This document shows positions 4,777 to 44,608 of a stretch of 64,000 bases of DNA, piece after piece; within the stretch, counting starts at the first letter, position 1; each line of letters opens with the position of its first letter. A program made the translations under genes and the position numbers. The notes beneath the pieces are model-generated. The model searched no databases. It was not told the origin of the DNA and worked only from the letters and a program-made list of their open reading frames with translations. Source of the DNA: a candidate division BRC1 bacterium ADurb.Bin183 (GTDB lineage: Bacteria; Sumerlaeota; Sumerlaeia; MWCT01); contig MWCT01000001.1 in assembly GCA_002070185.1 (NCBI GenBank), positions 267,110 to 331,109 on the forward strand, given 5' to 3'.

Positions 4777-5646
4777 TTAGAACGAGGTTTTGAGGTTGGA
4801 AAGGTGCTTCTGGGCGCGGTCAATGTGTTTCTGGTCGCCCACCGACTGGCTGAGCTCAAGAACCTTTTCCCATGTTTCAATCGCTTTTGAGCGCCAAGAG
4901 GGGCGTTTTTCATAAACAATTGCCAGATTGTTATAGGCTGGGAGAAATTCGGGGTCAATCTTGATGGCGTCCAGATAATGCTCCACCGCCTTTTCGTAAT
5001 CGCCCTGCCGCATTAACTCCACCGCTTTGCGGCATAATTCATCCACCAAGTCTTTGGTGGAGCGTCCGGGAACGGCTGAGGGCGCGCCTGAAGCGGGCGG
5101 GGGAGATGGCTCCGCTTTTGGCGGATAGGACGGAGCGACGGCGGTGGGGGACATAGAGTCGGGAGTTAAGACGATTGGCGGCGTGGCGGAGGCGGGTTTT
5201 TTGGGGAGCACCTCCTCTGTAGGTCCCGCTATTTTTACCGGTGTTTTGCGAGTGACGGCGGGTTCATCTTCGCCGAGGTGCTTGATTAAATACTCTTTCA
5301 CCACCAGCGTTCGCCGGAGCAATTCCGCCTCAGAGCCGGTTAGGATGTCAAAAATGCTTTGCAGTTTGGATACAAAAAGGATATCGCTGACGCTGTTGGA
5401 TGGGGAAATGAGAACCACGCGCGCCTTGTTTTTGTTGGCGGTCATCTTGAGCCCGACGAGCACGCCCAGTCCGGCGCTGTCAATGAAGTCCACGTTTGAA
5501 AGGTCAACATAAACCTGATTAATCCCTTTATCAATAAGGGAAACAGCGGCGTTTTTGAGCTGCTCACAATAATCAAGAACCACACGCCCTTGAATATCAA
5601 TATACAGGTTATTGTTGGTTCTATAGATATTGATGTCCATGCGCAC
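4777..5646 (-). CDS. STAS-domain anti-sigma-factor antagonist fused to a C-terminal TPR domain
   Basis: N-terminus has the STAS signature VDLSNVDFIDSAGLGVLVGL, followed by a Pro/Ala-rich linker and a TPR-like C-terminus (YEKAVEHYLDAIKIDPEFLPAYNNLAIVY). Ends 32 nt upstream of the PP2C gene on the same strand. Confidence 0.7.
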   Translation of the reverse strand: MRMDINIYRTNNNLYIDIQGRVVLDYCEQLKNAAVSLIDKGINQVYVDLSNVDFIDSAGLGVLVGLKMTANKNKARVVLISPSNSVSDILFVSKLQSIFDILTGSEAELLRRTLVVKEYLIKHLGEDEPAVTRKTPVKIAGPTEEVLPKKPASATPPIVLTPDSMSPTAVAPSYPPKAEPSPPPASGAPSAVPGRSTKDLVDELCRKAVELMRQGDYEKAVEHYLDAIKIDPEFLPAYNNLAIVYEKRPSWRSKAIETWEKVLELSQSVGDQKHIDRAQKHLSNLKTSF

Positions 5647-5883: not shown

Positions 5884-7284
5884 CTAAATCCCTTCCTCCC
5901 TTTGCATGTGCATAACGCCCGGGGGAATGGCTCCAGGGGGCGGCGGCGCCGCCTCGCCAAGTCCGGGCGGCGGAGGAACGGGCGCTGCCGCCACGCCGCT
6001 TTCGCTTGGTTTTTCTTCCCAGATGGTATCCAGATCCACGACCACACCCTCAACCATGCGGAGGACGTTGAGAAAGGCGTAGGCGTCCAGAACGCCTTCC
6101 CGTTCTTTTATGGTGTTGATAATCAGCGAATCGAGCTCGTAAGAACGGGAGACGTGGGAGACGTTGTAAAGGAAGTGGGTGATGTTGAAGTTTGAGCCGG
6201 TGAATCTCATTAGGATTGGAATTCCTGTGGCGATGATGTTTTGCGGAGGGGGCGCCTGCGCTCCGAGAGAAGCGGGGCGCGGTCGTCCAATCATGCCGAC
6301 TCTGCCGCCTTCGCCCATTTCGCCGTGCATCATCATCAAGTATTCGGGGTCTTCCGCCATCGCGAAAGGCATCGCTTCCGGCATAGGCGCGTTTTGTTCG
6401 CCCGGTTCAGGTGTTTCGCCGGGTTTGGGCGGTTCTTTGATAATATTCATTTCCTTCAGTTGCACTTCTGTTATGTCCTCAATCTTGTTAGTTTCCGCCA
6501 TTTGGATAATATCGTTGAGGGCGAAGAGTTGTTTATTGAGAGCCAGAAGGTCGTCATTGGGATAGGAAAGACGGAGAAATTCCTGAATCTGTTCGTCGGT
6601 GAATTTAATATCTTTAGGTTTGGCGCTGATGATGAGTTTGTAATGGCATTCGCGATTAATCAAAGGAACAAATTTGCCGTATTTATTGAGCCCCTCAATG
6701 GCGGGTTCATCAATGCCGATTTCCTCAAGGAGTTTGCTATACTGGCGCAAATTCTGGTCGCGGACGTTGGGGTTGTCCACGACCTTCAAAATGGCGCTGA
6801 TACCGCTGAGCGAACTCATAACGTCCCAAAGACGTTCGGGGCGTTTTCGGATATTTTCCGGCAGCTCGCGCGGGAGGTTCCATCCTTTTTCGCCGATAAA
6901 GCTGAGTTTTGTATTTTTTAAAGAATCCTGAAACCCGAGAAGAGTATCAATGCATTTTGTAAATTCCTCTTGGCGTTTTTTGATGGCTTCCGGGCTGGGG
7001 TCAATATAAGTTTTGGGAAGGTCTATTCTTAATTGTTCAATGACATCCTCGAATTCTTTTTTGTTCGTATCAACGCGGGCTTCGACCTTTTTTAATTCCT
7101 CAGGATTTTTTACCTTCGGGATAACCTGCTCATAGTTATCGCGGGAAGATTTCCAGTCATTCATGACAAGGGTGTATTCTGTGGCTTTGCGGGAAAAGAC
7201 CATGAAATGAAGACCGGCAAGAAAAAGAATTGTGGCAATTAAGCCAAACACCTTTTTCTCTCGATTGCGTAATACCATCTTCAT
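5884..7284 (-). CDS. Hypothetical membrane-anchored protein with Pro-rich C-terminus
   Basis: Track ORF starts at TTG 7305; the ATG at 7284 (MKMVLRN...) has an AGGAG upstream. One N-terminal hydrophobic helix, a coiled-coil-like middle and a PPPPG-rich tail. No family recognised. Confidence 0.45.
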   Translation of the reverse strand: MKMVLRNREKKVFGLIATILFLAGLHFMVFSRKATEYTLVMNDWKSSRDNYEQVIPKVKNPEELKKVEARVDTNKKEFEDVIEQLRIDLPKTYIDPSPEAIKKRQEEFTKCIDTLLGFQDSLKNTKLSFIGEKGWNLPRELPENIRKRPERLWDVMSSLSGISAILKVVDNPNVRDQNLRQYSKLLEEIGIDEPAIEGLNKYGKFVPLINRECHYKLIISAKPKDIKFTDEQIQEFLRLSYPNDDLLALNKQLFALNDIIQMAETNKIEDITEVQLKEMNIIKEPPKPGETPEPGEQNAPMPEAMPFAMAEDPEYLMMMHGEMGEGGRVGMIGRPRPASLGAQAPPPQNIIATGIPILMRFTGSNFNITHFLYNVSHVSRSYELDSLIINTIKEREGVLDAYAFLNVLRMVEGVVVDLDTIWEEKPSESGVAAAPVPPPPGLGEAAPPPPGAIPPGVMHMQREEGI

Positions 7285-7495
7285 GGGATGACATCTCCTT
7301 ATCAAAAACCGTCTTTTCTGCGGCGGTTTTCAAAAGTGCAAATATTTTGGCAAACTTCATTCACATATACCAGACGATTGTAAACGCGTTGCCTGCTCCG
7401 TTGTCAATAAAATATTGTTGGGTTCTTGGGTCACCTTGATTTTTCAAAAAAATAGATGTGTCCGTTGGAAGATGAAAAATGGGAGAAGGCGGAGG

Positions 7496-7617: not shown

Positions 7618-8886
7618 TTAATTATTTTGAGACGGTTTTGCGGAGGAAATAAGGAACAGTCTGCCGGTGCCGGCGGGTATAAATAACTGCACGCCCGGAA
7701 GTTTGGGGCTGCTGTCCCGAACGGTGATTTCCTCGCCAGATATCTTATCAATCTCACAAACTTGAGACATGTCGGATCTAAATTCCACTGTGGGCCAGGC
7801 GTTGTAAGCAATATGATAATTGTTTATCAAAACGGCTTGCCTACCGTCGGCATGTTTAAAAACGCCAACAAGATAATCCATATCAGGGTCTTCCTTGGAC
7901 TTTGATATTCGTTTTAAAGGCGTGCTGGTTAGGATGTCTTCAGAATTGCAGCCGGGAGGGATTCGATAGACGTCTGTGCTTGTGAGCTGCATGATGACGG
8001 CGCCGAGGTTTTTCAACTCTCCATTAATTCGCAATGCCTCATCATAGTGGTGAGTCTGGGTTCCATCAATAGCGATAATGGCGCCGCCTTTTGGAAATTC
8101 ATCCCCCGTGGGAGTGAAGTAACAAAAATAAAGAACGCCCTTTGCGCCATAAGCTAAAGAGGTGTATATCTGCCATCTAATTTGCGCTTCTGTGGGGTCG
8201 GTATGAGATCCGTAGGGCATAACGTTGAAAAAATTCCAAAAAGGGATGTTAAACTTAAGAGAGTATTTTCGCATTGTTTCAAGGTTGCTACAATAAAGAT
8301 CCCTGCCATCGCCATCAGGTCTGAAAATGGGGTAATGATCCATGCAAAGGACATCGGGATTCACAATTTTCATAAAATCAGATATATATTTCTCATAGGT
8401 ATTTTTTCCGAGCATACCAGAATTGGCGTAATTCGGATAGAGATTGATGAAGGATAGCTTGCCCGGATAACGTTCCCTATTTTTCTCAACCTTGCGAGCC
8501 AGATTTTTAAAATCAGCAGCAGAAGGCTCGTCTTTCAACAAATACCCCCAACAAGCAGAAGAAGAAGTTGGATAGTCTTCGGCATTTAAACCCCGCGTTC
8601 TAACAAGGGTTTTTAAATTATATTTTTCACAAAGTTCAAGTTGTTTATAGATTTCCTTAGGTGTTCTTGCTTTGACGCCAACCACCAGTGTAAAATTGGC
8701 ATCGGCAATTTCCTTATAACGCACGTCCGCTTTTTCGTCTAAGGGCGGATCTACCCAGAAACCGATTGCAAACCGATCCTGATGAAATCGGGCAATTTCC
8801 TCAGCAAGGGCGGGGTTTAAGAAATTGCAAATATACAGGAAGCATAGTGCAAATGCGATGGCTAATAAAAATAAATTTTTAGTCAA
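7618..8886 (-). CDS. Secreted glycoside hydrolase-like protein (TIM-barrel type, family uncertain)
   Basis: 422-aa ORF with an N-terminal signal peptide (MTKNLFLLAIAFALCFLY...ALA). Composition and motifs (GFWVDPP, LCMDHYP) suggest a GH-like TIM barrel. Visibly more AT-rich than flanking genes. Confidence 0.4.
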   Translation of the reverse strand: MTKNLFLLAIAFALCFLYICNFLNPALAEEIARFHQDRFAIGFWVDPPLDEKADVRYKEIADANFTLVVGVKARTPKEIYKQLELCEKYNLKTLVRTRGLNAEDYPTSSSACWGYLLKDEPSAADFKNLARKVEKNRERYPGKLSFINLYPNYANSGMLGKNTYEKYISDFMKIVNPDVLCMDHYPIFRPDGDGRDLYCSNLETMRKYSLKFNIPFWNFFNVMPYGSHTDPTEAQIRWQIYTSLAYGAKGVLYFCYFTPTGDEFPKGGAIIAIDGTQTHHYDEALRINGELKNLGAVIMQLTSTDVYRIPPGCNSEDILTSTPLKRISKSKEDPDMDYLVGVFKHADGRQAVLINNYHIAYNAWPTVEFRSDMSQVCEIDKISGEEITVRDSSPKLPGVQLFIPAGTGRLFLISSAKPSQNN

Positions 8887-9034: not shown

Positions 9035-11875
9035 CTATTTCTGTTTCATAATATGAATGATATCCGCAACGTCTATGATATTGTCCTTGTTATCATCGGC
9101 GGCATTTTTTTCTTCAGGTGTGAACGGTTTTTTGCCCAGAATATGCGAAATAATTGCGGGGATTGACGGAATATATTCGTATGCTCCCATATCATAACCA
9201 GAGCCCTGAGGACGCTTTACGCCGAGAATATCATAATCCGGCGCGCCTTCGGATGTCCCCTTGTCAATACAGGGGGAATTCGGCTGAAGCCGCAAATCCC
9301 ATTTTGTTGGGTCATCGCCGGATACATTGACAAACATAGGATTATCAGAAATATTGCCCCCGCCTGATATCCCACCGCTGAAACAACTGTACTTCACCAC
9401 ACCGCCGGAAAATTTAAAGTCTTCAGTATAATTATCCCATACTATACAGTTGGTCACTGTGCCTTTGTTATAAATCCCGCCGCCGTCTATTGCTCTGTTA
9501 TTATAGACTGTGCAATTGGTCACTGCGCCTTTGTTATAAATCCCGCCGCCGCGAGTTTTTGCGTTGTTTCCATAGACTGTGCAGTTGATCACCGTGCCGG
9601 AGTCGTAGTTATAAATCCCGCCGCCGCTATATTTTGCGCTGTTTCCATATATTGTGCAGTTGGTCACCGTGCCGTAGTTAGAAATCCCTCCGCCGTCATC
9701 TGCGTTGTTATTATAGACTATGCAATTGGTCACTGTGCCTTTGTTATAAATCCCGCCGCCGCAGAAGTCTTTGGCTATGACGTGTGTGCTTGATCTATTT
9801 CCATAGATTGTGCAGTTGGTCACCGTGCCTTTTTCGTAGTTATAAATCCCGCCGCCGTAATCTGCTTTGTTTTCATAGACGGTGCAGTTGGTCACCGTGC
9901 CGGAGTCGTAGTTATAAATTCCGCCGCCGCTATATTTTGCGCTGTTTCCATAGACTGTGCAGTCGGTCACCGTGCCTTTTTCGTCGTTATAAATCCCGCC
10001 GCCGATGTCTGTTGAGGTGTTATTATAGACTGTGCAGTTGGTCATCGTGCCGGAGTTATCTATCCCGCCGCCGTTTTTGGTTGCACTGTTTTCATAGACT
10101 GTGCAGTTGGTTACCGTGCCGTAGTTATAAATCCCACCGCCATCAGATACTGCGCTGTTTCCATAGACTGTACAGTTGGTCACCGTGCCTTGCCAGCTAT
10201 CAATCCCGCCGCCAACGTCTGCGTTATTTCCATAGACTGTGCAGTTGGTTACCGTGCCGTATTTGTTACTAATCCCGCCGCCGCTGCCAAATTGGCTTAA
10301 TACTTTGTTTCCATAGATTGTGCAGTTGGTCACTGTGCCAGTATTGTAAATCCCGCCGCCGTAATTTTCAGTTTTGCCTCTTGTAATATGAAAGCCGTCC
10401 AAAAATCCTGAGTTTTGGACGCAACGGCAAGCATCCTCTCCATCTATGATTGTGGGATGCGAGGAAATGTTCCGTTGTGAAAGTTGTGATTCCGTTCCCG
10501 CAAAGCCGCCATAAAGTGTAACGCGAATAGGAATTATTAATGTCTGCCCCTCAGCGTATGTTCCTTCCGCAACCCAGATTTGATAAATATCATCAGAATC
10601 CGCAATCTTATTCAAGGCGGCATTGATGGTTTTCAAAGCCGTCTTCCACGAGAGCCCATTATTGGCGTCGTTTCCGGATTTAGAAACATAAAGAGGACCC
10701 AAAGCTCGAGGCGGTTGAGGCTCATATTCATTGGGAGATTCATAGGCTCCCATGCAGACTTTGCCATCGGCGCCCGGTCGAGGATTGCCCATAATGTCTG
10801 TCTCCGGTGCGTCCTTCGTGCTCCCCGTATCCACACAAGGAGAGCCATTTTGCAATCGAAAATCCCATGTTGATAAATCGCCTGATGTGTTGACGAAAAG
10901 GGGATTCCCCCGTATATTTCCGTCATTTCCATCAGCCTCTTCGAAACAGCTATATTTCACAGATACTCTATTCCAAATATCTCCAAGCGAGTTTTTCCAT
11001 GAGATACAGTTGGTCACCGTGCCTTTGTTATAAATCCCGCCGACGATGTCCGTTGCGCTGTTATTATAGACTGTGCAGTTGGTCACCGTGCCTTTGTTAT
11101 AAATCCCGCCGCCGCCATATTTTGCGTTGTTGCTATAGACTGTGCAGTTAGTCACTGTGCCTTTTTCGTCGTTATGAATCCCGCCACCGTAATTTGCTTT
11201 GTTTTCATAGACTGTGCAATTGGTCAGCGCGCCGGAGTCGTAGTTATAAATCCCGCCGCCGTAACTTGTTGCGCTGTTATTATAGACGGTGCAGTTGGTC
11301 ACCGTGCCGGAAGAATCGTTATAAATCCCGCCGCCGTAACTTGTTGCGCTGTTATTATAGACTGTGCAGTTGGTCACCGTGCCGGAAGAGTTATAAATCC
11401 CGCCGCCGTAACTTGTTGCGCTGTTATTATAGACTGTGCAATTGGTCACCCTGCCGTAATTGTTATAAATCCCGCCGCCTAAGCCATATATCCCTCTTGT
11501 AATATGAAAGCCGTCCAAAACTCCTGAGTTATGGACGCATTGACGGGCATCCTCTCCATCTATGATTGTAGGATGTGCGGAAATGTTCCGTTCTGAAAGT
11601 TGTGATTCCGTTCCCGCAAAGCCGCCATAGAGCGCAACATCTTCACGATTACTAACGGTTTTAGATTCTGCATAGGTCCCTTTTGCGACCCAAACCTCAT
11701 CGCCTTCTTGTGCCTTTTCTGTTGCCTTTACAATTGTTTTTAAGGCGGCATCCCATGAAACTCCCGAATTAGTATCCTTGCCGGTGGTTTTCACATAATA
11801 CCGCGCCGCAAAGGTGGAAGTTGACATAATCACCCAAAATGCAATTACCGGGAAGATGCCTCGAGTAGATTTCAT
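9035..11875 (-). CDS. Secreted right-handed parallel beta-helix repeat protein, internally duplicated, with a dockerin-like C-terminal tail
   Basis: Track ORF 9035..11905; the ATG at 11875 (MKSTRG...) has a GGAG-type RBS. Two homologous ~450-aa modules, each with many GTVTNCTVYNNSA..GGGIYN rungs. C-terminus DDNKDNIIDVADIIHI resembles one dockerin/EF-hand-like Ca-binding loop. Confidence 0.7.
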   Translation of the reverse strand: MKSTRGIFPVIAFWVIMSTSTFAARYYVKTTGKDTNSGVSWDAALKTIVKATEKAQEGDEVWVAKGTYAESKTVSNREDVALYGGFAGTESQLSERNISAHPTIIDGEDARQCVHNSGVLDGFHITRGIYGLGGGIYNNYGRVTNCTVYNNSATSYGGGIYNSSGTVTNCTVYNNSATSYGGGIYNDSSGTVTNCTVYNNSATSYGGGIYNYDSGALTNCTVYENKANYGGGIHNDEKGTVTNCTVYSNNAKYGGGGIYNKGTVTNCTVYNNSATDIVGGIYNKGTVTNCISWKNSLGDIWNRVSVKYSCFEEADGNDGNIRGNPLFVNTSGDLSTWDFRLQNGSPCVDTGSTKDAPETDIMGNPRPGADGKVCMGAYESPNEYEPQPPRALGPLYVSKSGNDANNGLSWKTALKTINAALNKIADSDDIYQIWVAEGTYAEGQTLIIPIRVTLYGGFAGTESQLSQRNISSHPTIIDGEDACRCVQNSGFLDGFHITRGKTENYGGGIYNTGTVTNCTIYGNKVLSQFGSGGGISNKYGTVTNCTVYGNNADVGGGIDSWQGTVTNCTVYGNSAVSDGGGIYNYGTVTNCTVYENSATKNGGGIDNSGTMTNCTVYNNTSTDIGGGIYNDEKGTVTDCTVYGNSAKYSGGGIYNYDSGTVTNCTVYENKADYGGGIYNYEKGTVTNCTIYGNRSSTHVIAKDFCGGGIYNKGTVTNCIVYNNNADDGGGISNYGTVTNCTIYGNSAKYSGGGIYNYDSGTVINCTVYGNNAKTRGGGIYNKGAVTNCTVYNNRAIDGGGIYNKGTVTNCIVWDNYTEDFKFSGGVVKYSCFSGGISGGGNISDNPMFVNVSGDDPTKWDLRLQPNSPCIDKGTSEGAPDYDILGVKRPQGSGYDMGAYEYIPSIPAIISHILGKKPFTPEEKNAADDNKDNIIDVADIIHIMKQK
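9400..10350 (-). repeat. Degenerate tandem coding repeats (~70-75 nt period) encoding beta-helix rungs, C-terminal module
   Basis: Recurring near-identical stretches such as tgtgcagttggtcaccgtgcc...tataaatcccgccgcc appear roughly every 70-80 nt. Confidence 0.7.
10990..11480 (-). repeat. Degenerate tandem coding repeats encoding beta-helix rungs, N-terminal module
   Basis: Same repeat family as 9400..10350; several units are near-identical at the DNA level (e.g. gctgttattatagactgtgcagttggtcaccgtgccggaag). Confidence 0.7.
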
Positions 11876-12107: not shown

Positions 12108-14078
12108 TTACTCCATTGTTTTCATTTCTATTTGTTCAACCCATATGGAAAGTTCGCGGGTATCCGCATCAAGAGGGTCGAGGCGCTGGGGCGATTGGGT
12201 GCGGCTGGAAAGGATGCGCGCCTCATTGACTCCGCTGAAAAGGGCTTCCGGCTCGATTTCCCATGCGATGTCCTGCCAACCTTGATGAAGCGTTCGGGAT
12301 GTGAGCAGGGTATCATTCACCATCAGATTCAGTTGGAGGGCGGGGTTCATTGCCTGATTGTAAGGGAAAACGCGGACGGACACCGCGAGCGGCTGCGCGT
12401 TTTCCAGAGTAAAAAAGAAAAAGCCTTCTTTGCCGTCCATGGCTCGGAGGGCTTTCCCCTCCCAGATTTCGCGCCCGCTCCAGCCCATGCCAAGATAGGG
12501 GCATTTTTCCTTTCCGGGAAAGATGATAAGATGGGGATTCGAATTGCCCAGAGGCGCGGTTTCAATGCGGGCGGAGTGTTTCTGCCAGATGGAGAGTCCC
12601 CAGAATTGAGGCGCTTCTTTATGCATGCCATTTTCTAAAATCTGCCGGTATCGAAGATTCGGGATATGCGCCGTTTCGATATAGGAGGGCAGAACAATTA
12701 AATGATTTCCGCGGCTGCGCAAAATATTCTCGAGCGTTTTTGTATCATCAAAATCAGTTTTTATGACCGTGTTTGTGCCGCAAAAAATGTTTTGATAGTA
12801 AGGAGCGACAAGAAAGTCTGCCTCCGTTCCCACAACCACAATTTTGTTTTTATGCTCCTCGCGGGCAAGTCTTTGGAAAAACCCGCGCCAGTCTGCGCGG
12901 TTGACGGGATACGCAAGGATATAGTAAAGCCCCGCCCCGAGACATAATGCGCCCAAAAATAAAGCCGCCGATGTCGCGGCGGCGGGCGCTGGCTTTTTGA
13001 AAAAGCGCCGAACAATGACTCCTGTAATCCACCCAAGCGTTTCGATTCCCATAGCGGCAAGCGCAAGAGCCGCCGGCAACGCCGCAAGGACATATCGCAC
13101 CTCCATCCAGTGATTGATGGCGTAATAAAACCCGAACATCCCTGCGAAAAAAACCGTGAATAAAAAAAAGCAAAAAAGGGCGGCGGGTCTTTTGTCGCGT
13201 CTGATAATCCAGCCTGCCAGACCAATCGCCATCAATGCCAAAAGCGCCCAGCCGCTCCCCGCAACGTATTGCCACCAATCATAGCCCAGCGCAAAAATAT
13301 CCAGATAAAGGCGCGCCCGTTCCCATGAGGCGGCGTCAAAGGGGGCGTAGTATTGAGTCTGAATGGCGCCGGCGCCCCGCTGCATGAGCGGAATCATGCT
13401 TAAAAGCGTCAAGAGAAGGAGGGCGGCGGGAAAAAGCCATTGCCGTTTTTGGGCGAACATCTCCCGCGGTTTATAAGGATGTTCTTTTTTCATAAGAAAC
13501 CAGCCCGCGCCAAAAAGAAGAGCCGCAAAGCAGACCAGCCCTGTCCAGTAAAGCGACCAGAGGCAAATCGCCATCGTGAAAATCAAAAAAGACATCTGGC
13601 GCGGACGGGGCGGCGCTGGCGATTTTGCCACACTCCAGAATGCGCCAAGGAACAGGCTTTCGGAAAAAAGCATCAAGGCATAGGGGCGCCCCTCTTGAGA
13701 ATATCGCGCCATCAAAGGGTTGCCAAGCGCCAGAATCAAGACGATAAGCCCGAGGGCGCTTCCGCCCATTTTCCATGCCCACCACCCCAGCGCCGCAACC
13801 GCCGCCGAACCGATGATGCAGGCATGCAAACGCGCGCGCGCCTCCGATGTTGGGGCATCCTTTTTCATAAAAAACCACTGAATGTAATAATCCAGCGGAG
13901 GTTTGTCGCTTGGGGATTGAGACCATATTTTGCCAAACCGCCCGCTTGTTGTCCGCATTTGAAGAATCTCATCCTGCCAAAAGGAGGCGCGGTCAATATG
14001 GGGCAAACGCGTAAAAAACGCTGCGATAAAACCGAGCAGAAGATAAACTATGAAAACCGGTTTTTTAACGGGAAACAT
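12108..14078 (-). CDS. Membrane glycosyltransferase, GT39/GT83-like (ArnT/PMT family) with C-terminal extracytoplasmic domain
   Basis: 656 aa, many TM helices in the first ~450 aa, an early DE motif in the first loop (FWQDEIL) and a soluble C-terminal domain. Typical of ArnT/PMT-type glycosyltransferases. Confidence 0.55.
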   Translation of the reverse strand: MFPVKKPVFIVYLLLGFIAAFFTRLPHIDRASFWQDEILQMRTTSGRFGKIWSQSPSDKPPLDYYIQWFFMKKDAPTSEARARLHACIIGSAAVAALGWWAWKMGGSALGLIVLILALGNPLMARYSQEGRPYALMLFSESLFLGAFWSVAKSPAPPRPRQMSFLIFTMAICLWSLYWTGLVCFAALLFGAGWFLMKKEHPYKPREMFAQKRQWLFPAALLLLTLLSMIPLMQRGAGAIQTQYYAPFDAASWERARLYLDIFALGYDWWQYVAGSGWALLALMAIGLAGWIIRRDKRPAALFCFFLFTVFFAGMFGFYYAINHWMEVRYVLAALPAALALAAMGIETLGWITGVIVRRFFKKPAPAAATSAALFLGALCLGAGLYYILAYPVNRADWRGFFQRLAREEHKNKIVVVGTEADFLVAPYYQNIFCGTNTVIKTDFDDTKTLENILRSRGNHLIVLPSYIETAHIPNLRYRQILENGMHKEAPQFWGLSIWQKHSARIETAPLGNSNPHLIIFPGKEKCPYLGMGWSGREIWEGKALRAMDGKEGFFFFTLENAQPLAVSVRVFPYNQAMNPALQLNLMVNDTLLTSRTLHQGWQDIAWEIEPEALFSGVNEARILSSRTQSPQRLDPLDADTRELSIWVEQIEMKTME

Positions 14079-14243
14079 ATTTTTTAATTCCTGTTAACAC
14101 TTATGGTTCAAACGAAAAATATAGTTGCAGCGGCGTCCGGCAATATACAAGAATTTTTGCAATTCGTGACGCCGATATTTTATCGGCATATTTTTTGCCT
14201 TGATATATCGCAGTTATATTTCACGGGCGGAGAAAGGCGTTTG

Positions 14244-15185
14244 GCGATGTCTCTTTGGACAAAGAGGAACAAAGGCTGGCTGATAATTGTTCCATTTGGG
14301 ACACTTTTTATCTTTGCCCTGATGCTTTCCCGTCCGATTTTATCCGACGAATCTACAACAGGCGTGAAAACCGTCCAAATACAGGATAAATCCGCGCCCT
14401 CGTCTCCGCAGCCCGAGAAAATCCGCGCCACTATCCGCCGTCTTGGAGATGTGGGAATGCGGCGCTCCATGCTTCATAAACGCCGCAATTCCCTGATGAA
14501 GGAAATGGGAAAAGCCAGAAGAGGCGCTAACTTTGACAAGCCCGGTCTTCGGCAATTCTTTTTCAAAAGAGGGTTCGAAAAAAAGGCGTCAGATTTGCAT
14601 CTTGTCCTCGAAGAAGAGCGGGAACTATCCATCGAACAACGCCTCCTCCTTCGAAAACTTCTCGAAAATAAAACCCTGACAAATGATTTAATTAATGAAG
14701 AAATAGCATCTATTGAAAAGGCGGGAAAACCATCGGCGGGCGATAAAAAAACCGCTGCGCAGGATAATAAATTCCGAGCCGCCAGACGCATCGAATCCCT
14801 CAGACAGATTCGCGAAGCCCTTGATTATCTGGAAAAAAATCCGCGCCAGCCCGCGCCGGCGGAAAAAATCTCAAAGACCGAAGAAACGGCGCAGACTGCC
14901 GGCGCCCCTCAGCCGCGTTCGCCGCGTCCCCGCAGCCGTATGAGGGCGCGCCCTGAAACCGGCGATGAAAAGGAATGGGCGCAAAATTTTGTCGGACAAA
15001 AAATGCGGCGTCTCCAAAATCAGATGCAGGAGCTCCGCATCAATTTGGAACGCTCCCAACGGGAAATGGAAGACCTGAAACGAATCATCAAAACGCTTCG
15101 CGAGCGCCGTCCGGAAATCTTTGAGGAGATTGAAAAAGAGGGACGGGAGCAAAAAATAAATCCCGAAAGCGAAAAGAAGAATTAA
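14244..15185 (+). CDS. Hypothetical membrane-anchored coiled-coil protein
   Basis: Track ORF starts at 14103, only 25 nt from the divergent gene start. The internal ATG at 14244 (MSLWTKRNKGWLIIVPFGTLFIFALML) gives one TM helix followed by a charged, coiled-coil-like sequence. Confidence 0.4.
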   Translation, partial: AMSLWTKRNKGWLIIVPFGTLFIFALMLSRPILSDESTTGVKTVQIQDKSAPSSPQPEKIRATIRRLGDVGMRRSMLHKRRNSLMKEMGKARRGANFDKPGLRQFFFKRGFEKKASDLHLVLEEERELSIEQRLLLRKLLENKTLTNDLINEEIASIEKAGKPSAGDKKTAAQDNKFRAARRIESLRQIREALDYLEKNPRQPAPAEKISKTEETAQTAGAPQPRSPRPRSRMRARPETGDEKEWAQNFVGQKMRRLQNQMQELRINLERSQREMEDLKRIIKTLRERRPEIFEEIEKEGREQKINPESEKKN

Positions 15186-24507: not shown

Positions 24508-25785
24508 TCATCCCTTCCTGATGTTCTTTATATGATAACGCAATGAATCAAACGATAGCGCGCCTTCGCGCAGGATGGTATAGGGTTCTTTGATGACGGA
24601 AAGGACTGTGGAGACTAGCTCGCAACGCATCTCTCCAGCATCAAGGATGATGTCCACTTTTCCGCCAAAGTATTCCTTCACCTGTTCGGCGGTGCGGGCG
24701 GGCGGTTGACCTGATGGATTGGCGCTGGTGACTGCGAGCGGGCGCGCCGCCATGTTAATGACGCCCAGCGCAACTGTGCAATCGGGGATGCGGATGCCGA
24801 TAGTATCGCCGTTGGAAACGGCGGAAAGCATAGTCTCAGGTTTGGAGAAGATGACCGTCAGCGCTCCAGGCCAGAGTTCATCCAGCATTTCTTCCACATC
24901 TTTTGGAATTTTGCGGACAAGGCGGCTGAGCGTTTTCATGCTGTCAATCAGCAAGGGGATGGGCTTGCTCTCTTTGCGCCCCTTGATGTCGTAAAGTTTA
25001 TGAACGGCTTTTTCGTTGGTTGAATCGCAGGCAAGACCATAGACGGTGTCTGTGGGGATGGCGACAATCTTTCCTTCCAAAATGGCATCCGCCACGCGTT
25101 CGATTGCCTCAAAGGAGGGGTTATCGGGATCAACGCGGAGGATTTGTCTGCTTTTAGGCGCGGGCGATGCGGCGGGGATATTGGGTCTTTTTGAGATAAT
25201 AGACGCAGGCGCGGGCTTTGGCTGCGGCGCAACTGGAGCGGCTTTGGGTTTCTCTTGCACTTTTGCGGGCGCGGGATTCAGCGCCAGATGAGGGAAACGG
25301 CTCATCAACTCCTGCTGATCCGTCTCGATTTTATCCATGCGGTTTTTGCGGAACGCCACCAGACGCTTGCGGAGTTCGCAATCATGGAGGGCAATAATCT
25401 CCGCCGCCAAAAGCAACGCATTTTGGACGCTATTGATTCCCACGGCGGCGACCGGGATGCCGGGCGGCATCTGCACGATGGAATAAAGGGCGTCCTGTCC
25501 GCGCAATGCGTCCGCCTCGACGGGAACGCCAATGACGGGCAGAAGCGTCTGCGCCGACACAACGCCGGGCAAGGCGGCAGCCATTCCGGCGACGGCGACA
25601 AATACCTGAACGCCCGCCTCTTCCGCTTCCTTTATCCAGCGCATGACGGCTTCCGGCGTTCGATGCGCCGATGCGATGCGCGCGGCACAGCGCAGATTCA
25701 ATTCCGCAACAGCCTCCAGCGCTTTTTCCACCAGATGCCAGTCCGATTTGCTCCCAATGATAATACCGATAGCAGGCTCGCCCAT
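24508..25785 (-). CDS. Fusion protein: N-terminal PurE-like (N5-CAIR mutase family) domain and C-terminal YrdC/TsaC-like (threonylcarbamoyl-AMP synthase family) domain
   Basis: Residues ~1-160 carry PurE signatures (IGIIIGSKSDW, SAHRTPE, AGMAAALPGV). A Pro/Ala-rich linker follows, then a YrdC domain (IVAIPTDTVYGLACD...RIPDCTVALGVINMAARPLAVTSANPSGQP). Confidence 0.75.
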   Translation of the reverse strand: MGEPAIGIIIGSKSDWHLVEKALEAVAELNLRCAARIASAHRTPEAVMRWIKEAEEAGVQVFVAVAGMAAALPGVVSAQTLLPVIGVPVEADALRGQDALYSIVQMPPGIPVAAVGINSVQNALLLAAEIIALHDCELRKRLVAFRKNRMDKIETDQQELMSRFPHLALNPAPAKVQEKPKAAPVAPQPKPAPASIISKRPNIPAASPAPKSRQILRVDPDNPSFEAIERVADAILEGKIVAIPTDTVYGLACDSTNEKAVHKLYDIKGRKESKPIPLLIDSMKTLSRLVRKIPKDVEEMLDELWPGALTVIFSKPETMLSAVSNGDTIGIRIPDCTVALGVINMAARPLAVTSANPSGQPPARTAEQVKEYFGGKVDIILDAGEMRCELVSTVLSVIKEPYTILREGALSFDSLRYHIKNIRKG

Positions 25786-26140
25786 TGTTTCCCCTCATTA
25801 AATAAAGATGGCAGTTAATCAATACTCAAATAACTGCGGACGTGTTTATGAAATTTTTTAAAAGAGCATCGTTGAAAACGCGGAAGAAATCTACCATGGA
25901 ATCGTGCAAAATTTTATATGTATCCGCGCATGTCAAAATATACCCTTATTCTTCAAAGTTATATTTTTTCTTATATTGGCTTCAACGGCGGATGCAAGGA
26001 TATTCTAAATTCATCCCACCCCAAAATTTTTTGAAGATGTTAAAGCAACTGATTCTGAATTAAGAATCTGTTTGACGATGATTGCCCCGCCAAAGTAAGT
26101 GGAATCCTCTTATGTTTTTTGATTAAAAAGGAGTCCCGAC

Positions 26141-32712: not shown

Positions 32713-34020
32713 TTATCCGCCCAGCAGCGGAGAGTATTTGGCGGAGAGGCACAAGCCCGCAACAGCGGCTGTTTGGAAACAGGCAAGGTTCGCCGCCAAA
32801 AGCGCGCGCGGTCCCAACGCCACCAAATCCTTCCGCCGCTCCGGCGCCAGCGCCGCCGTCCCGCCCACGAATATCGCCATCGCCGCCACGTGCGCAAATC
32901 CGCATAATCCATAAGCGGCAATCACCGCAGCGCGCCGGCTTAAGCCCGCCTTTATAGCATCGCCCAGTTGAATATAGGCGGGCACCTCTGTTGCGACGGC
33001 GCGCAAACCCCAGAGGCGCGCCACAGTTTCCGATTCCGCCGCGTTCAACCCGCACATCCGCACAATCGGATAACATAACCAGCTCAACATCCGTTCAATC
33101 GAAAGCCCCTGCACGCCCAGACGCGTCCCGCCATAACCGATAACGGCGTTGACAAGCGAGAGAATGCCGAGGAACGCAATCAAAAGCCCGCAGATGCCGA
33201 TGATTAATTTCACGCCTTCCATAGCCCCTTGAAGCGCGGCGTCCATGATGCTTGCCGGCGGCGCGCCCTCCGATGTGAAAATATCGCGCCCGACGCGGAC
33301 GCTTTTGCCCAGCGTCAGCGGTTGTTCCTCCTCTGGATATAGCACCTTTGCCATCACAGCCGCCGCCGGCGCGGAGAGCAGCGAGGCGGAAATAAGATGC
33401 GCCGCAATGTTGGGCATCTGTTCCTTGAGTATCAGCGTATAAAATCCCAGCACAGACGAAGCCAGCGTCGCCATTCCCGCCGTCAAAAGCAGATGCAGCT
33501 CGGACATGGTCATCTTTTGCAAATAGGGGCGAACGCCAAAAACTGATTCAATCCCCGTAAAAATATTATTTGCCGTGACCAGCGATTCCGCGCCGGATGT
33601 TTTTAACAAACGGCTGAAAACCCATGCGAAGAATCCCACCACCCGAGGCATAATGCCCACATAATATAGAATGGACATCACCGAAGCCACAAAGATGATA
33701 ATCGGAAATCCCTGAAAAAAAAGGAAAAAGCCGAGCGATTGCTCGCCGCTGCTGCCGGTCTGTCCGGGCGGCACGGCAAGAGCGCCGAAAATCAGCTCCG
33801 CCCCTTTTCGCCCATGCGAAAGCGTCTTATCCACAAGGATGTTGATTTTTTGAAAAGCAAAACTTCCCGCGCTCGACTGCAGAAAAAAGGAGGCGATGAC
33901 AATCTGCAACGCAATGCCCATCAGCGCCGTTCTCCATGGAAACTTCCGACGATTGCGCGAAAATACCCACGCCAGCCCAACCAAGAAAATGACGCCCCAC
34001 AAACTTGCCAGACGCTCCAT
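32713..34020 (-). CDS. Nucleoside transporter, NupC/CNT family
   Basis: 435-aa polytopic membrane protein whose length and hydrophobicity pattern resemble concentrative nucleoside transporters. Confidence 0.55.
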   Translation of the reverse strand: MERLASLWGVIFLVGLAWVFSRNRRKFPWRTALMGIALQIVIASFFLQSSAGSFAFQKINILVDKTLSHGRKGAELIFGALAVPPGQTGSSGEQSLGFFLFFQGFPIIIFVASVMSILYYVGIMPRVVGFFAWVFSRLLKTSGAESLVTANNIFTGIESVFGVRPYLQKMTMSELHLLLTAGMATLASSVLGFYTLILKEQMPNIAAHLISASLLSAPAAAVMAKVLYPEEEQPLTLGKSVRVGRDIFTSEGAPPASIMDAALQGAMEGVKLIIGICGLLIAFLGILSLVNAVIGYGGTRLGVQGLSIERMLSWLCYPIVRMCGLNAAESETVARLWGLRAVATEVPAYIQLGDAIKAGLSRRAAVIAAYGLCGFAHVAAMAIFVGGTAALAPERRKDLVALGPRALLAANLACFQTAAVAGLCLSAKYSPLLGG

Positions 34021-41100: not shown

Positions 41101-44100
41101 TTATTTTTTTGCGCCGGCAAGGGAAAGAGCCATCGCTTTTATGGCGCGCAGGTCGAGTTTGCCCGTTCCTAAAATCGGCAGGGCTTCCACGCGGAAAAAG
41201 TCGCTCCATTTGGGAATCCAGAGCGGCGGCAGCCCCATATTCTGAATCTCCTCCGCTGCCCGCCGCGCTTTCTCCTCCCGTGCGGCATATAAAACAACGA
41301 GCCGTTCGCCTTTTTTTTCATCGGGAACACCGGTTACCGCAAAAATCATGTCGGTTGCGCCGATGGCGTTGTGGAGCGTCTCTTCGATCCGAATGTGCGG
41401 CGCCATCTCGCCGCCAATCTTGGAAAATCGCGAAAGCCTGTCTGTGATGGTGATGAACCCTTCTTCGTCAATCTGCGCAATATCCCCTGTAACATACCAC
41501 CCATCTTTCATAACCTCTGCGGTTTTTTCCGGCAGATGGTAATATCCGTGCATGATATTATGCCCGCGAACATGCAGCATTCCGGGTTCATTGACGCCGA
41601 GCGGCGCGCCGGTTTCCGGGTCAACAACGCGCACCGTCACGCCGGGTGCGGGATGCCCGACCGTTCCATATTTCACGCCTTTTTGATAAAAGGACGGTTG
41701 GCGGAAATCGGGTGTGTTGAGGCAGACGATGGGGGAGCATTCCGTTGCGCCGTAGCCTTCTATCGGGCGGATGCCGAATCGTTTTTCAAACGCCTCTGAG
41801 ACGTTGGCGCGCAGCTTTTCCGCGCCGGTCAGCGCCATGCGGAGCGAACCGAATTGCTCCGGCTGGACGCGCCGCGTGTATATGTTCAAAATGGTGGGCG
41901 TTGCGAAAAGATGCGTGATTTTATGTTTCTGCACAAGCTCTCCTATCTCGCGCCCATGAAGCGGGTTCGGGTGGTATATCACCCGAAACCCTGTCAGCAT
42001 CGGCAGCCAGAGCGCCACTGTGTTTCCGAACGAGTGGAAAAATGGAAGAATGCCCAGCAGGCATCCATCAGGCGGAAAATCCACCATGTGATAAGCCGAT
42101 GCGACATTTGCCCAGATGTTCCAATGCGTGAGTTCCACGCCTTTGGGCGCGCCGGTGCTGCCGCTGGAAAAAATAATCGTGGCAACATCGTCCATTGATG
42201 CGGATTTTTTTCTGCCAAGCAGTTTATCAAACGAGTTGGTTTTTTGCCGGATAAAAATATGAAAAAAGGCTTTGGATGTATCCCAGAATGAGATTTCGTT
42301 TCGAATATCTTCAAGGTAAACAATATCGCATTTTGCGGGGAGGGCGATTTTGATTTTTTTCATGAACAAACGCGATGTGATAATAAGGCGGATGCCCGCA
42401 TTGGCGCAGATTTCCTCGATAACGGCAGCGGCGGCGGTGTAGTTCAGATTGATGGGGATGCGCCCCGACCATGTTGCGGCAAGATTCGTTGCTGCCGCGC
42501 CTGCGGACGGCGGAAGCAAGATGCCGATATTTTCATCGTCCTGCCATTTGCGGCGGAGTTTCCTCCCCAGTGCAATCGTCCCCGCCAGCATCTTATACTG
42601 GGCAAACGAACCATTGCGCAGAGTGTTGACCGCTTCCAGATGCAAAGGCAGCGCGCGCTCTTTACGTATGGCAAAGGCGTCCACCATCAAATCCATAATC
42701 GCGACGCGCAATTGCGGATGTTTTGTATCGGCGGGCATCGGCTTTCCGAAGACAACGCACAAAACCGGCTTTTTTGCCCGAGGATTAAAAAAGATGGGTT
42801 TTCGGCGACCGCCCGGCAGCGCAAAGATTGTTTCATAAGCGCCGTCAATCGCCGCAGGGATAATCGGCTCTTGGATTCCCCGCATGATATGCTCAAAACC
42901 GCGGCGGAATGGCAGCATCATTCCCAACCGCGTCATCTGACCTTCTGGGAAGATGCAGACCAGCCCGCCTTGGCGGATCTCCTCGCGAGCCTCCCGCAGC
43001 GCCTTTATCAAATCCCTAACGGAGCCCAGCCCTTTTATGGGAATTGTGTTCGTTATTCGGGCAAAGGGATAGATAAACCATTTGCGGTATAGGTCTTCCG
43101 TCATAATAAAACGTACAGGGCGCTCGATGACGACGCTTAATAAGAGGGCGTCTATATAGGACTGATGATTCGATGTTATGAGCGCGCCGCCTTTGGCGGG
43201 GATATTCTCCGCGCCCTTCACGTTCACACGGTAAATCATTTTGAAAAGAACAACCGCAAGGAAACGCAAAGGGATGCGCGGGAATTTGACGCAAATGACA
43301 ATCCCTGTCAAAAGCATGAGAACCCCGCCCGCAAAAAACACATCCCCCGGAGAAGCGGTCGCCTGAACTATTAACCCCCTTGCGCCCGCCCCCGCCATCA
43401 TCCCAATGGAGGTGAACACATTAGAAACCGACCAGACGCCGCCGCGTTTATCGGGGCGAGTTTCCTGAATCACAAACGCCTGCAGAGGCACAATGAAAAA
43501 ACCGCAGACCAGACCGACAAGCCCCATCATCGCAGGGACAATGTATCGAATATGCTGCAACTGTTCCGAGCTCATGCGGCTCAATTCCGCAAAATTTGGC
43601 GTCAGCCGCCACACCAGCATCGAGGCGGAAAACATCGCCAGCGCGCCGAACGGCACAAGTCCCAACTCGATCCGATTCTTTGAAACCATCCCGGCAAGAA
43701 CGCACCCCGCCCCCATGCCCACCACAATCGGAAGCAACGCCAGCCCTGTCTGAGACGGAGATAAACCCAACACCTGCACCGCAATCAGCAACGCCGCTCC
43801 CTGCATCATCACGCCCGCCATCCACCAGACGCTCATGCCCACCACGCCCCACAAAATTCCCGTGTTGGAAAGAATTTCACGTCCATATAGGGAGACCATC
43901 GGAACGGGATTGATTTCGAATCGCTGCGCGGGATTGCCGACCGGCGTGGGCGCCATTTGAAGGGCAAGCAAAGCTCCCCCTCCCGCAAGCCCAACAAGAA
44001 TCAATCCATTAATCCAAAGCGATTGATTAAAACATTGAAAAAGCGACGGTCCAAGAATCGTACCCAAAATGATGGCAAGAAACGTCCCGCCCTGAAGGAT

Positions 44101-44574: not shown

Positions 44575-44608
44575 TGGCGAAAAATCATGCTGAAACAAAC
44601 CTCGCGGT

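Follow-up and report, generated by a model that had tools for sequence, protein, structure and literature searches.

Known fusions of PurE and TsaC

PurE and TsaC are textbook housekeeping functions. Class I PurE catalyses step 6 of de novo purine synthesis, yielding CAIR, and TsaC uses ATP, threonine and CO2/bicarbonate to form the L-threonylcarbamoyl-AMP (TC-AMP) needed for the t6A modification of tRNA. Members of the class I PurE family are homo-octamers of 422 symmetry in which three protomers contribute to each active site (PMC10484210), and there are precedents for an octameric PurE core with a second enzyme fused to it, among them PAICS (PMC10484210, PMC3261824). These precedents comprise the animal PurC-PurE protein PAICS, the PurK-PurE proteins of fungi, plants and Dehalococcoidia, PurD-PurE, and PurE-PurE' of methanogens; in PAICS-type fusions the partner is an enzyme of the purine pathway and PurE is usually the C-terminal part. 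TsaC domains are likewise found as modules, in Sua5 (TsaC plus SUA5), in HypF and TobZ (a YrdC-like plus a Kae1-like domain) and in TsaC/HemK of Mycoplasma (PMC10321239, PMC4615747). None of these has PurE as its partner. The partner domains of HypF and TobZ act on the adenylate delivered by the YrdC-like domain; for PurE, by contrast, no use of TC-AMP is known.

The protein described here, from Candidatus Sumerlaeota (BRC1), differs from the PAICS type in that PurE is N-terminal and the partner stems from an unrelated pathway, the t6A modification of tRNA. The preliminary description of this DNA had judged the arrangement not to be a standard architecture, in keeping with its absence from the TsaC-family reviews consulted (PMC10321239, PMC4615747); a literature search for a PurE-TsaC fusion or for purine metabolism in Sumerlaeota returned nothing relevant. 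We consider the protein to be, probably, a two-enzyme fusion typical of Candidatus Sumerlaeota, in which a class-I-type PurE and a TsaC, derived from adjacent genes, are joined by a disordered tether.

The fusion gene

The gene lies in a stretch of 64 kb, hereafter the window. That a single ORF carries PurE-type and YrdC/TsaC-type domains, as proposed from first inspection, is borne out by the Pfam matches to AIRC and Sua5_yciO_yrdC.

24508..25785, minus strand: whole purE-tsaC fusion ORF, 425 aa plus stop codon (ORF list; Pfam and NCBIfam matches in both halves)
25791..25796, minus strand: GAGGGG, Shine-Dalgarno-like, 5 nt 5' of the ATG (read from the sequence)

Read from the sequence, the ORF starts with ATG and contains neither an N nor an in-frame stop. 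Its start is well defined, because an in-frame stop lies just three codons upstream of the ATG. In the DNA of the linker the longest homopolymer is 5 nt. The protein is 100% identical to OQB23060.1 from a candidate division BRC1 MAG, and an identical or at least 90%-identical protein is encoded on 24 + 13 contigs of independent assemblies, with contigs of up to 953 kb; the assemblies with OQB23060.1, HOE62242.1 and HRR31318.1 contribute contigs of 760-953 kb. A survey of the architecture, suggested early on, found both Pfam domains in every one of the best 120 database clusters (120/120), at identities down to ≈ 31%. At least 120 clusters have the PurE-TsaC architecture, the best 120 having been examined, and the best 150 at 50% identity include at least 43 two-domain representatives. 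The agreement between assemblies, and also between species, serves here as a stand-in for read-level evidence on the fusion, which is real and lineage-wide and not an assembly artefact.

The PurE domain and its active site

25297..25785, minus strand: PurE (AIRC) domain, residues 1-163, of which 136-163 form the long C-terminal helix (PF00731, TIGR01162, 1qcz, pLDDT)
25663..25665, minus strand: codon of His41 in the SAHR motif, the counterpart of catalytic His45 in E. coli PurE (alignment to 1qcz)
25573..25575, minus strand: Ala71 codon, where E. coli PurE has the class-I-specific His75 (alignment to 1qcz)

The N-terminal half matches PF00731 (AIRC) over residues 6-149 (E 4.8e-55; 185.6 bits, cut-off 30) and TIGR01162 (purE) over residues 6-160, with 187.1 bits against a curated equivalog cut-off of 149.6. 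Its best match in the PDB is E. coli PurE 1qcz with E 3.5e-39, compared with E 8e-17 to 2.5e-10 for the class II chains of T. denticola and human. With class I PurE (E. coli 1qcz/1d7a) it shares the fold, a full-length match, an identical GSKSD P-loop, the SAHR loop with the catalytic His, the QMPxG motif and a predicted long C-terminal helix, the GSKSD P-loop (residues 11-15) aligning with E. coli residues 15-19 and the SAHR loop (residues 39-42) with residues 43-46. It differs from class I PurE by the alanine at His75 and by a C-terminus that runs into the linker and a second enzyme; moreover, the gene has no purK nearby and lies outside any pur operon in the window.

The catalytic role of the universally conserved histidine, His45 in E. 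coli, is established (PMC9376930). The corresponding His41 is invariant in 206 aligned sequences, 53 of the Ala type and 153 of the His type, and G11, S12, S14, D15, S39, A40, R42 and A66 are equally invariant in both sets, as are G67, A70, L72, P73, G74, Q105, M106, P107 and G109. The set of active-site residues is complete except for the class-I-specific His75. The 70s loop reads AGMAAALPG and shares seven of nine residues with the class I loop AGGAAHLPG; owing to Ala71 it is not the class I loop proper, nor is AGMAAAL the class II sequence AGRSNGL. Of 120 fusion clusters, 29 carry the exchange of His75 for alanine, as do 24 of 120 clusters of standalone PurE. In the comparison of the 53 Ala-type with the 153 His-type sequences no residue clearly compensates for it. 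The next most class-specific columns are 46, 47 and 19, which may just reflect phylogeny.

Standalone purE genes of the Ala type reside within purine operons, in the orders purC-purS-purL-purQ-purF-purD-purE and purF-purM-purE, so that Ala-type PurE would serve purine synthesis. Because these purine-operon proteins show the same exchange, the PurE domain of the fusion is probably active as well. The preliminary description had named the lack of PurE catalytic residues as a finding that would speak against a PurE enzyme; the alignment has His41 in place and only His75 replaced, by the very alanine that also occurs in standalone PurEs of purine operons. His89 mutants of A. aceti PurE reportedly retained some activity, and a literature search on the role of PurE His75/His89 gave nothing relevant. 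Judged from these alignments, the half belongs to the PurE family and is class-I-like, with a substrate that may be N5-CAIR or AIR plus CO2. The histidine retained in characterised class I PurEs is alanine here, which counts against the preferred reading of a class-I-type PurE insofar as it leaves the substrate uncertain.

It is possible, though on balance unlikely, that the PurE half is not an N5-CAIR mutase and instead acts as a PurK-independent AIR carboxylase, with a class II-like function on a class I scaffold and direct use of CO2 in a CO2-rich anaerobic habitat. The loss of His75 would fit, since class II PurE has a glycine at this position and binds the carboxylate through its backbone NH only (PMC9376930), and class-I-like PurE without PurK is known from high-CO2 anaerobes (PMC3261824). 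In the same direction, purK was found neither in the window, which has no ATP-grasp/PurK gene, nor in three operons with Ala-type purE, nor in 87 loci searched with a PurK probe built from P0459 and P0464. On the other hand, the remainder of the 70s loop is that of class I (AGxAA-LPG) and unlike AGRSNGL, and the class II structures match far more weakly (E 8e-17 at best). An adjacent purK is missing from the closest His-type relatives too, so adjacency is uninformative and does not discriminate the Ala variant; purK could sit elsewhere in the genome, and N5-CAIR formed non-enzymatically could supply a true mutase. PurD-PurE and PurK-PurE fusions also occur among the PurE proteins; P0184 and P0252, considered as PurK-PurE fusions, were rejected, their N-terminal part being PurD.

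The TsaC domain

24511..25143, minus strand: TsaC (YrdC-type, single-domain) L-threonylcarbamoyladenylate synthase domain, residues 215-425 (PF01300, TIGR00057, PDB, pLDDT)
24976..24984, minus strand: K268-G-R270, KxR half of the TsaC tetrad (motif table)
24718..24726, minus strand: S354-A-N356, SxN half of the TsaC tetrad (motif table)

The C-terminal half matches PF01300 (Sua5_yciO_yrdC) over residues 234-408 (E 3.6e-54; 183.4 bits, cut-off 25.1) and the TC-AMP synthase model TIGR00057 over residues 219-411, with 184.7 bits against a curated equivalog cut-off of 123.2. The tetrad K268, R270, S354 and N356 is invariant in an alignment of 72 sequences; the KxR/SxN tetrad is the feature that sets TsaC/Sua5 apart from YciO (PMC4615747, PMC10321239). 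Among PDB entries, the TsaC-like domain of archaeal Sua5 matches the half more closely by sequence (E 3e-38) than E. coli YrdC does (E 1.7e-20). A C-terminal SUA5 domain (PF03481) gave no match, and the protein stops 14 residues past the end of the TIGR00057 match (411 to 425); because the SUA5 domain is absent, the half is of the TsaC and not of the Sua5 type. In the comparison with known TsaC/YrdC proteins (TIGR00057; 1hru, 1jcu) and with the TsaC-like domain of Sua5 in 6f87/6f89, the equivalog cut-off is passed, the tetrad is intact and the SUA5 domain is missing, and the fusion differs by its N-terminal PurE domain. Profile score and tetrad identify this half as a single-domain TsaC.

Two further identities were considered for this half and rejected: YciO, because of the KRSN tetrad and an E-value of 2.6e-11 for PDB YciO against 3e-38 for Sua5/TsaC; and HypF/TobZ, since the TIGR00143 score of 40.9 bits stays below the cut-off of 466.1 and covers the YrdC-like part only, and no Kae1-like domain is present. 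With both equivalog cut-offs exceeded and His41 and the KxR/SxN tetrad in place, the early proposal of a real PurE/TsaC two-domain protein appears sound as far as sequence can tell.

Linker and predicted structure

25144..25296, minus strand: Pro/Ala/Lys-rich interdomain linker, residues 164-214 (composition, pLDDT, variability across homologues)

The Pro/Ala-rich linker, previously estimated at about 25200..25330, comprises 51 residues at 25144..25296, of which 13 are proline and 11 alanine. Its low-confidence core, residues 171-209, is 54% Pro+Ala with an AlphaFold pLDDT of 44-58, compared with values above 90 for the PurE and above 95 for the TsaC domain. Across homologues, the linker varies in length from 39 to 292 residues at an identity of ≈ 23%. 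The AlphaFold model, of the monomer only (pTM 0.60), predicts no fixed interface between PurE and TsaC. The linker is predicted to be a disordered, flexible tether of ≈ 50 residues, and the two halves that it joins would most likely work independently. Because PurE enzymes are octamers, the expected product would be a PurE octamer core bearing eight tethered TsaC domains.

The fusion family and the role of the PurE module

All named members of the fusion family belong to Candidatus Sumerlaeota, and a motif-based scan of GTDB genomes has at least six Sumerlaeota and at least two Firestonebacteria loci among the matches listed. Pairwise identities of the PurE halves correlate with those of the TsaC halves (r = 0.78), and the clade containing the protein described here is monophyletic in both half-trees; the two halves therefore share one history. 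In a sister clade, the ET clade (for example P0057), the PurE P-loop is changed from GS to ET and the catalytic histidine to L/W. The mean pairwise identity of the PurE half is nevertheless 0.70 there, the same as in the intact clade of the present protein, compared with ≈ 0.23 for the linkers, and 62 of 147 PurE positions are at least 90% conserved, versus 69 of 147 in the intact clade. The PurE module of the ET clade thus seems catalytically dead yet strongly conserved, which hints at a structural role. A further family carries a weak AIRC module and, in front of TsaC, an inserted Clp_N domain, and other sister lineages lose the TsaC tetrad but keep the fusion. Judged by contig-length fingerprints, the fusion classes look mutually exclusive per genome. 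The ET, long and H-type fusion contexts have no conserved neighbours in common.

The conserved dead module of the ET clade argues against the two-enzyme reading in its plainest form, in that PurE may aid TsaC and not be a mere passenger; if the PurE module does contribute to TsaC, full independence of the halves is too simple. A functionally selected fusion with coupled halves, in which the PurE-derived octameric module would scaffold TsaC, regulate it or serve it as a ligand-binding partner, is rather doubtful, even though several features speak for it. Besides the ET clade, the family with weak AIRC and inserted Clp_N retains the module ahead of TsaC, the fusion has been kept across divergence down to ≈ 31% identity, and the fusion classes seem to exclude one another within a genome. 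Such a module might conceivably, at similarly low probability, offer the t6A machinery eight TsaC domains at once or act as a sensor of a purine intermediate. Against this stand the disordered linker, unconserved and variable in length, and the lack of a fixed interface in the AlphaFold model (pTM 0.60). Furthermore, the PurE site is intact in the protein described here, so a non-catalytic role is not needed, and conservation of a dead domain could reflect constraints of folding or solubility on the whole protein.

Taken furthest, Sumerlaeota would have recruited the PurE fold to serve TsaC permanently as a platform, either oligomeric or ligand-sensing, a proposal to which we give little weight. 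The present protein would then represent a still-bifunctional stage, and its sisters those with a dead PurE, a Clp_N insertion or a lost TsaC tetrad, a sequence of stages that seems similarly improbable. The physical coupling of purine-precursor status or CO2 handling to t6A synthesis would on this account have been selected and would be no neutral accident of gene order, which is just as speculative.

Gene context and origin of the fusion

The fusion gene is monocistronic and lies between obg and the gene of a PLP-dependent enzyme. There are no pur or t6A neighbours at the locus, and the window contains no separate purE or tsaC and no genes for TsaD, TsaB or TsaE; no lar or hyp genes were seen nearby. 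No riboswitch or other Rfam match was obtained around the gene, and scans for promoters and terminators did not rise above shuffled expectation. The local context adds nothing in favour of the two-enzyme fusion. A further point against it is that a second purE or tsaC may exist elsewhere in the genome, which would relieve the corresponding half of its housekeeping duty.

The adjacent-gene state is found in another phylum. In Firestonebacteria (locus L077), separate genes for purE (9995..10534, 179 aa) and tsaC (10531..11169, 212 aa) lie on one strand, their stop and start overlapping by 4 nt (ATGA) and no linker intervening, and this PurE is also of the Ala type (AGMAAALPG). The pair is preceded by purF-purM and followed by LMW-PTP, rpiB and glyA. 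It shares gene order, orientation, the Ala-type 70s loop and the type of TsaC with the fusion, and is unlike the fused Sumerlaeota ORF in consisting of two proteins with overlapping genes and pur genes upstream. The Firestonebacteria pair likely represents the ancestral unfused arrangement. In the proposed course of events, purE, as the last gene of a pur cluster, would have lost its stop codon at the point of overlap with the start of tsaC, which in turn headed a cluster of the tsaC-ywlE-rpiB-glyA type. Fusion of neighbouring genes at an operon junction is the simplest and most likely origin.

A metabolic coupling of the halves via CO2/bicarbonate, for example carboxyl channelling between the PurE and TsaC sites, is very improbable. 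Both reactions do use carboxyl groups derived from CO2/bicarbonate, and purE and tsaC, besides adjoining in Firestonebacteria, lie within ≈ 4 kb of each other in eight Chloroflexota loci. The two pathways have, however, no intermediate in common, the tether is long and disordered, and the neighbourhood is accounted for by abutting clusters, pur upstream and tsaC-ywlE-rpiB-glyA downstream; clades that lost one active site retain the fusion, contrary to obligate coupling. The biochemical link through CO2/bicarbonate that the preliminary description implied has accordingly found no support, and adjacent-gene fusion at an operon junction is simpler.

A LarB-like carboxylase/hydrolase joined to an adenylating domain, or a carbamoyl-handling protein of the YciO/HypF type, is scarcely to be entertained. 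It could appeal to weak matches to LarB (34.9 bits) and HypF (40.9 bits) and to the M and A of AGMAAALPG, which we take to resemble LarB loops faintly. The cut-offs of 175 (NF033503) and 466 bits are widely missed, unlike those of the purE and TsaC models; SAHR is in this context a motif specific to PurE, lar and hyp genes are lacking nearby, and YciO is excluded by the KRSN tetrad. The LarB option offered at the outset is rejected at the level of sequence by the NF033503 score.

An assembly or sequencing artefact joining two separate genes is next to inconceivable: the relative L004 does have its two halves in different frames, but its supposed frameshift was rejected as a run of Ns, an assembly gap, whereas the present ORF is free of Ns, and its linker of long homopolymers, and the identical protein on many independently assembled contigs is joined by more than 120 diverged homologues of the same architecture.

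Implications

The PurE-TsaC fusion is a curiosity and no new kind of system, and the understanding of neither pathway is changed by it. Annotation pipelines name the fusion proteins after one of the two functions only, and pathway reconstructions from Sumerlaeota MAGs will consequently report purE or tsaC as missing, wrongly. The case also counsels caution with Rosetta-stone reasoning, as a widespread and ancient two-enzyme fusion is here best explained by gene adjacency and not by a shared pathway. The family provides a natural series, from an intact PurE via the exchange of His75 for alanine and a dead but conserved PurE to loss of the TsaC tetrad. This series allows one to ask what a PurE octamer core gives when fused to an unrelated enzyme, and it could reveal whether the class-I-specific His75 is needed for the use of N5-CAIR.

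Domain architecture of the fusion protein

The ORF listing holds a single frame at precisely the position reported in the preliminary description, with the following features:

24508..25785, minus strand: purE-tsaC fusion ORF, ATG-initiated, 425 aa
5 nt upstream of the ATG, minus strand: Shine-Dalgarno-like motif GAGGGG, read from the sequence
residues 11-15: GSKSD, equivalent to E. coli PurE G15-D19
residues 39-42: SAHR, equivalent to E. coli S43-R46
residues 66-74: 70s loop AGMAAALPG, versus AGGAAHLPG; the class-I-specific His75 is Ala71
K268-G-R270 and S354-A-N356: KxR/SxN tetrad of the TsaC half

E. coli PurE numbering, to which the first three motifs were aligned, is that of the window protein plus 4. 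The frame contains no ambiguous bases, the upstream in-frame stop lies just 3 codons from the ATG, and the longest homopolymer in the linker DNA is 5 nt. The linker is indeed rich in Pro and Ala, with 13 Pro and 11 Ala among the 51 residues 164-214.

The presence of a PurE-type and a YrdC/TsaC-type domain in one protein was borne out by Pfam: residues 6-149 match AIRC (PF00731, E 4.8e-55), and residues 234-408 match Sua5_yciO_yrdC (PF01300, E 3.6e-54). In the HMM search of each half proposed in the preliminary description, the N-terminal half scored 187.1 bits against the NCBIfam purE equivalog model (cut-off 149.6), and the C-terminal half 184.7 bits against that of L-threonylcarbamoyladenylate synthase (cut-off 123.2). 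The LarB model gave 34.9 bits against a cut-off of 175, which disposes of the proposed LarB-like carboxylase joined to an adenylating domain; HypF was rejected likewise (40.9 versus 466). The best solved structure for the N-terminal half is E. coli class I PurE (1qcz, E 3.5e-39), class II enzymes matching much more weakly (T. denticola 3rg8, E 8e-17; human PAICS, E 2.5e-10). For the C-terminal half the best structures are the Sua5/TsaC TC-AMP synthases (6f89, E 3e-38); an identity as YciO was discarded, with a structure match of E 2.6e-11 and the tetrad present, a signature that tells true TsaC/Sua5 from this paralogue (PMC4615747, PMC10321239). Because the protein ends shortly past the TsaC domain, it is of the single-domain TsaC type rather than Sua5.

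Loss of the PurE catalytic residues had been named as fatal to this assignment. GSKSD is retained, as is His41, which aligns with the universally conserved catalytic His of PurE (PMC9376930); the class-I-specific His75, in turn, is replaced by Ala71. By every sequence criterion tested except this His, the protein belongs to both the PurE and the TsaC family, and since it is absent, the sub-class "N5-CAIR mutase" is not asserted for the PurE half.

Distribution of the architecture

A sequencing error creating an artificial fusion can be dismissed. The window protein matches OQB23060.1, from a digester MAG of candidate division BRC1 (Sumerlaeota), at 100% identity; the 90% cluster of that entry occurs on 24+13 contigs of independent assemblies, the longest being 760 and 953 kb. 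The database survey suggested earlier found both Pfam domains in all 120 of the best 90%-identity clusters, at identities down to 31%, all named members being Sumerlaeota or Sumerlaeia. An exhaustive HMMER search of 1.84 billion representatives clustered at 50% identity returned 726 matches at E <= 1e-30, and local half-HMMs recognized at least 43 two-domain PurE-TsaC proteins among the best 150 of these. The fusion is thus real and old. An apparent frameshift in the related locus L004 turned out to be a run of Ns.

Predicted structure and the linker

The AlphaFold2 model, computed from a 72-sequence alignment (mean pLDDT 91, pTM 0.60), predicts two folded domains, residues 1-170 and 210-425, each with pLDDT > 90, a long helix (136-163) closing the PurE domain. 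Residues 171-209 are predicted to be disordered (pLDDT 44-58). Homologue linkers, rich in Pro, Ala and Glu, range from 39 to 292 residues; within clades they share only about 23% identity, against about 70% for the domains. Low confidence in 171-209 and poor conservation together point to a flexible tether and away from a fixed two-domain machine. PurE enzymes are octamers, in which each active site is built from three protomers, and PAICS illustrates that a PurE octamer core can carry fused enzymes (PMC10484210). By this analogy, we would infer a PurE octamer at the centre, to which eight mobile TsaC domains are attached.

The His75-to-Ala variant

Among the 120 fusion clusters, 57 carry His (H-type) and 29 Ala (Ala-type) at the His75 position, the latter comprising the window's clade of 17 and one further clade; the catalytic His45 is missing from 21, with the TsaC tetrad retained, and the tetrad itself from 13. 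Standalone PurEs carry the Ala variant too: AGxxAALPG occurs in 24 of the 120 that come nearest to the Firestonebacteria PurE, and three standalone Ala-type purE genes lie in unmistakable purine contexts, namely purC-purS-purL-purQ-(purF)-purD-purE followed by pyr genes on two Elusimicrobiota-type contigs, and purF-purM-purE on a Firestonebacteria-type contig. When 53 Ala-type and 153 His-type sequences were aligned together, no obvious change compensating His75 to Ala emerged, and all other active-site positions were invariant in both groups. The class II equivalent of His75, Gly334, contacts the carboxylate through its backbone NH only (PMC9376930), so the His side chain is unneeded for the carboxylation chemistry itself. 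Given this, the Ala variant in purine operons and the invariance of the remaining active site, the PurE half very probably functions in purine synthesis, with either N5-CAIR or AIR plus CO2 as its possible substrate. A search found no purK in the 64-kb window, the Ala-type purE operons examined or any of 87 loci, and the closest His-type relatives likewise have no adjacent purK.

Origin of the fusion

Two Firestonebacteria genomes carry the two enzymes unfused, as a 179-aa PurE with the Ala-type loop and a 212-aa TsaC. Their genes lie on the same strand, and the purE stop overlaps the tsaC start by 4 nt (ATGA):

L077, 9995..13975: unfused Firestonebacteria purE-tsaC locus
L068: second unfused Firestonebacteria purE-tsaC locus

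Downstream follow genes for a low-molecular-weight phosphatase (LMW-PTP), rpiB, glyA and a dCMP deaminase gene, and on a related contig purF and purM lie upstream of the pair. From these neighbours, purE closes a pur cluster and abuts the first gene of the tsaC-ywlE-rpiB-glyA cluster, a cluster known from Bacillus ywlC. The window gene probably descends from such an unfused arrangement: the overlapping purE stop would have been lost where purE abuts tsaC, and subsequent growth of a linker would have yielded the Sumerlaeota protein. Since fusion the two halves have co-evolved: their pairwise identities correlate (r = 0.78), and quick neighbour-joining trees of either half recover identical clades for the motif classes. 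An origin from adjacent genes explains the architecture without a biochemical link between the PurE and TsaC reactions.

The window gene itself is monocistronic, with obg (convergent) on one side and a gene for a PLP-dependent enzyme (divergent) on the other, argC and argJ lying beyond; the whole 64-kb window contains no pur or t6A genes, and no riboswitch was found at the fusion gene. A second, looser purE-tsaC neighbourhood exists in another phylum, in eight Chloroflexota/Dehalococcoidia loci (L025, L026, L028, L029, L030, L047, L055, L057) with purD-purE about 4 kb from an opposite-strand tsaC.

Diverged sister classes

Judged by its motifs, the fusion family is not bifunctional everywhere.

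Diverged fusion classes
ET clade, 16 clusters: P0043, P0045, P0057, P0073, P0075, P0077, P0081, P0083, P0085, P0090, P0091, P0094, P0095, P0098, P0105, P0107; e.g. L081 10001-11413
Long-type family, Sumerlaeota, at least 65 clusters, 500-600 aa, linkers of 135-292 residues: P0092, P0111-P0120, P0402-P0451; e.g. L082 10001-11626, L005
AIRC+Clp_N+TsaC, metagenomes: P0084, P0148, P0152, P0161, P0173
Clp_N+TsaC, metagenomes: P0154, P0158, P0160, P0162, P0164

In the ET clade GSxSD has become ETxQ(E/D)F and SAHR has become SAL(K/R)SP, the catalytic His being L/W; with P-loop and SAHR motifs replaced, these proteins cannot be PurE, while the TsaC tetrad is intact. Their PurE half has the same mean pairwise identity as in the window's intact clade (0.70 versus 0.70) and a similar number of positions at least 90% conserved (62/147 versus 69/147), and has the look of a pseudo-enzyme retained by selection. 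Such purifying selection on a dead module suggests that it contributes something to the fused TsaC, for example oligomerisation or a new ligand site. This is the main rival to an explanation from gene adjacency only, albeit an unlikely one.

In 64 of 69 long-type members the TsaC tetrad is gone (Ser354 to Asn in 59, Arg often Q/H/K), and many members of the family retain the PurE His. The long-type TsaC half would therefore count as YciO-like, and the genomes concerned should need another TsaC/Sua5. In a third group (600-685 aa) the AIRC module is weak or no longer recognisable, a Clp_N domain is inserted, and the TsaC domain looks intact; Clp_N-containing relatives span 440-685 aa overall, with Clp_N lying ahead of a strong TsaC domain and behind an AIRC module that is weak or has vanished. 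An indirect comparison of records traced no long-type match to the same source as any H-, Ala- or ET-type match, and in the complete 5,996,854-bp genome OW818685.1 the H-type P0052 was the sole class traced. The classes look like lineage-specific replacements, not co-resident paralogues.

Other genes in the window

282..2219, plus strand: threonyl-tRNA synthetase
3230..4744, minus strand: membrane protein with 5TMR-LYT and SpoIIE phosphatase domains
4777..5646, minus strand: adjoining STAS+TPR protein
5884..7305 (minus), 7618..8886 (minus), 12108..14078 (minus), 14103..15185 (plus), 49869..50420 (plus): ORFs of 183-656 aa, no Pfam match at E <= 1e-5
32713..34020, minus strand: Na+-dependent nucleoside transporter, NupC type
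41101..44715, minus strand: 1204-aa ORF with MFS_1, Acyltransferase and AMP-binding domains
53061..62831, plus strand: giant ORF, 3256 aa

The SpoIIE and STAS+TPR proteins look like a partner-switching signalling pair, and the 1204-aa ORF like a triple fusion of the lysophospholipid transporter/acyltransferase/acyl-ACP synthetase type. Given the NupC-type transporter, the organism can also import nucleosides, a prediction that has a bearing on its need for de novo purine synthesis.

Comparison with known fusions

None of the known PurE fusions (PAICS, PurK-PurE, PurD-PurE, PurE-PurE') has a TsaC partner, and none of the known TsaC-domain fusions (Sua5, HypF, TobZ, TsaC/HemK) a PurE partner, in keeping with the earlier impression of a non-standard architecture; a full-text literature search found no description of it. 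The searches also returned PurD-PurE (P0184, P0252, P0462; ~585-607 aa) and Dehalococcoidia PurK-PurE fusions (P0459, P0464; ~581-596 aa), PurE being C-terminal in both. The databases carry hundreds of PurE-TsaC proteins, each named for one of its two functions only. PurE-TsaC is a genuine domain architecture, previously undescribed, whose origin is likely an ordinary one.
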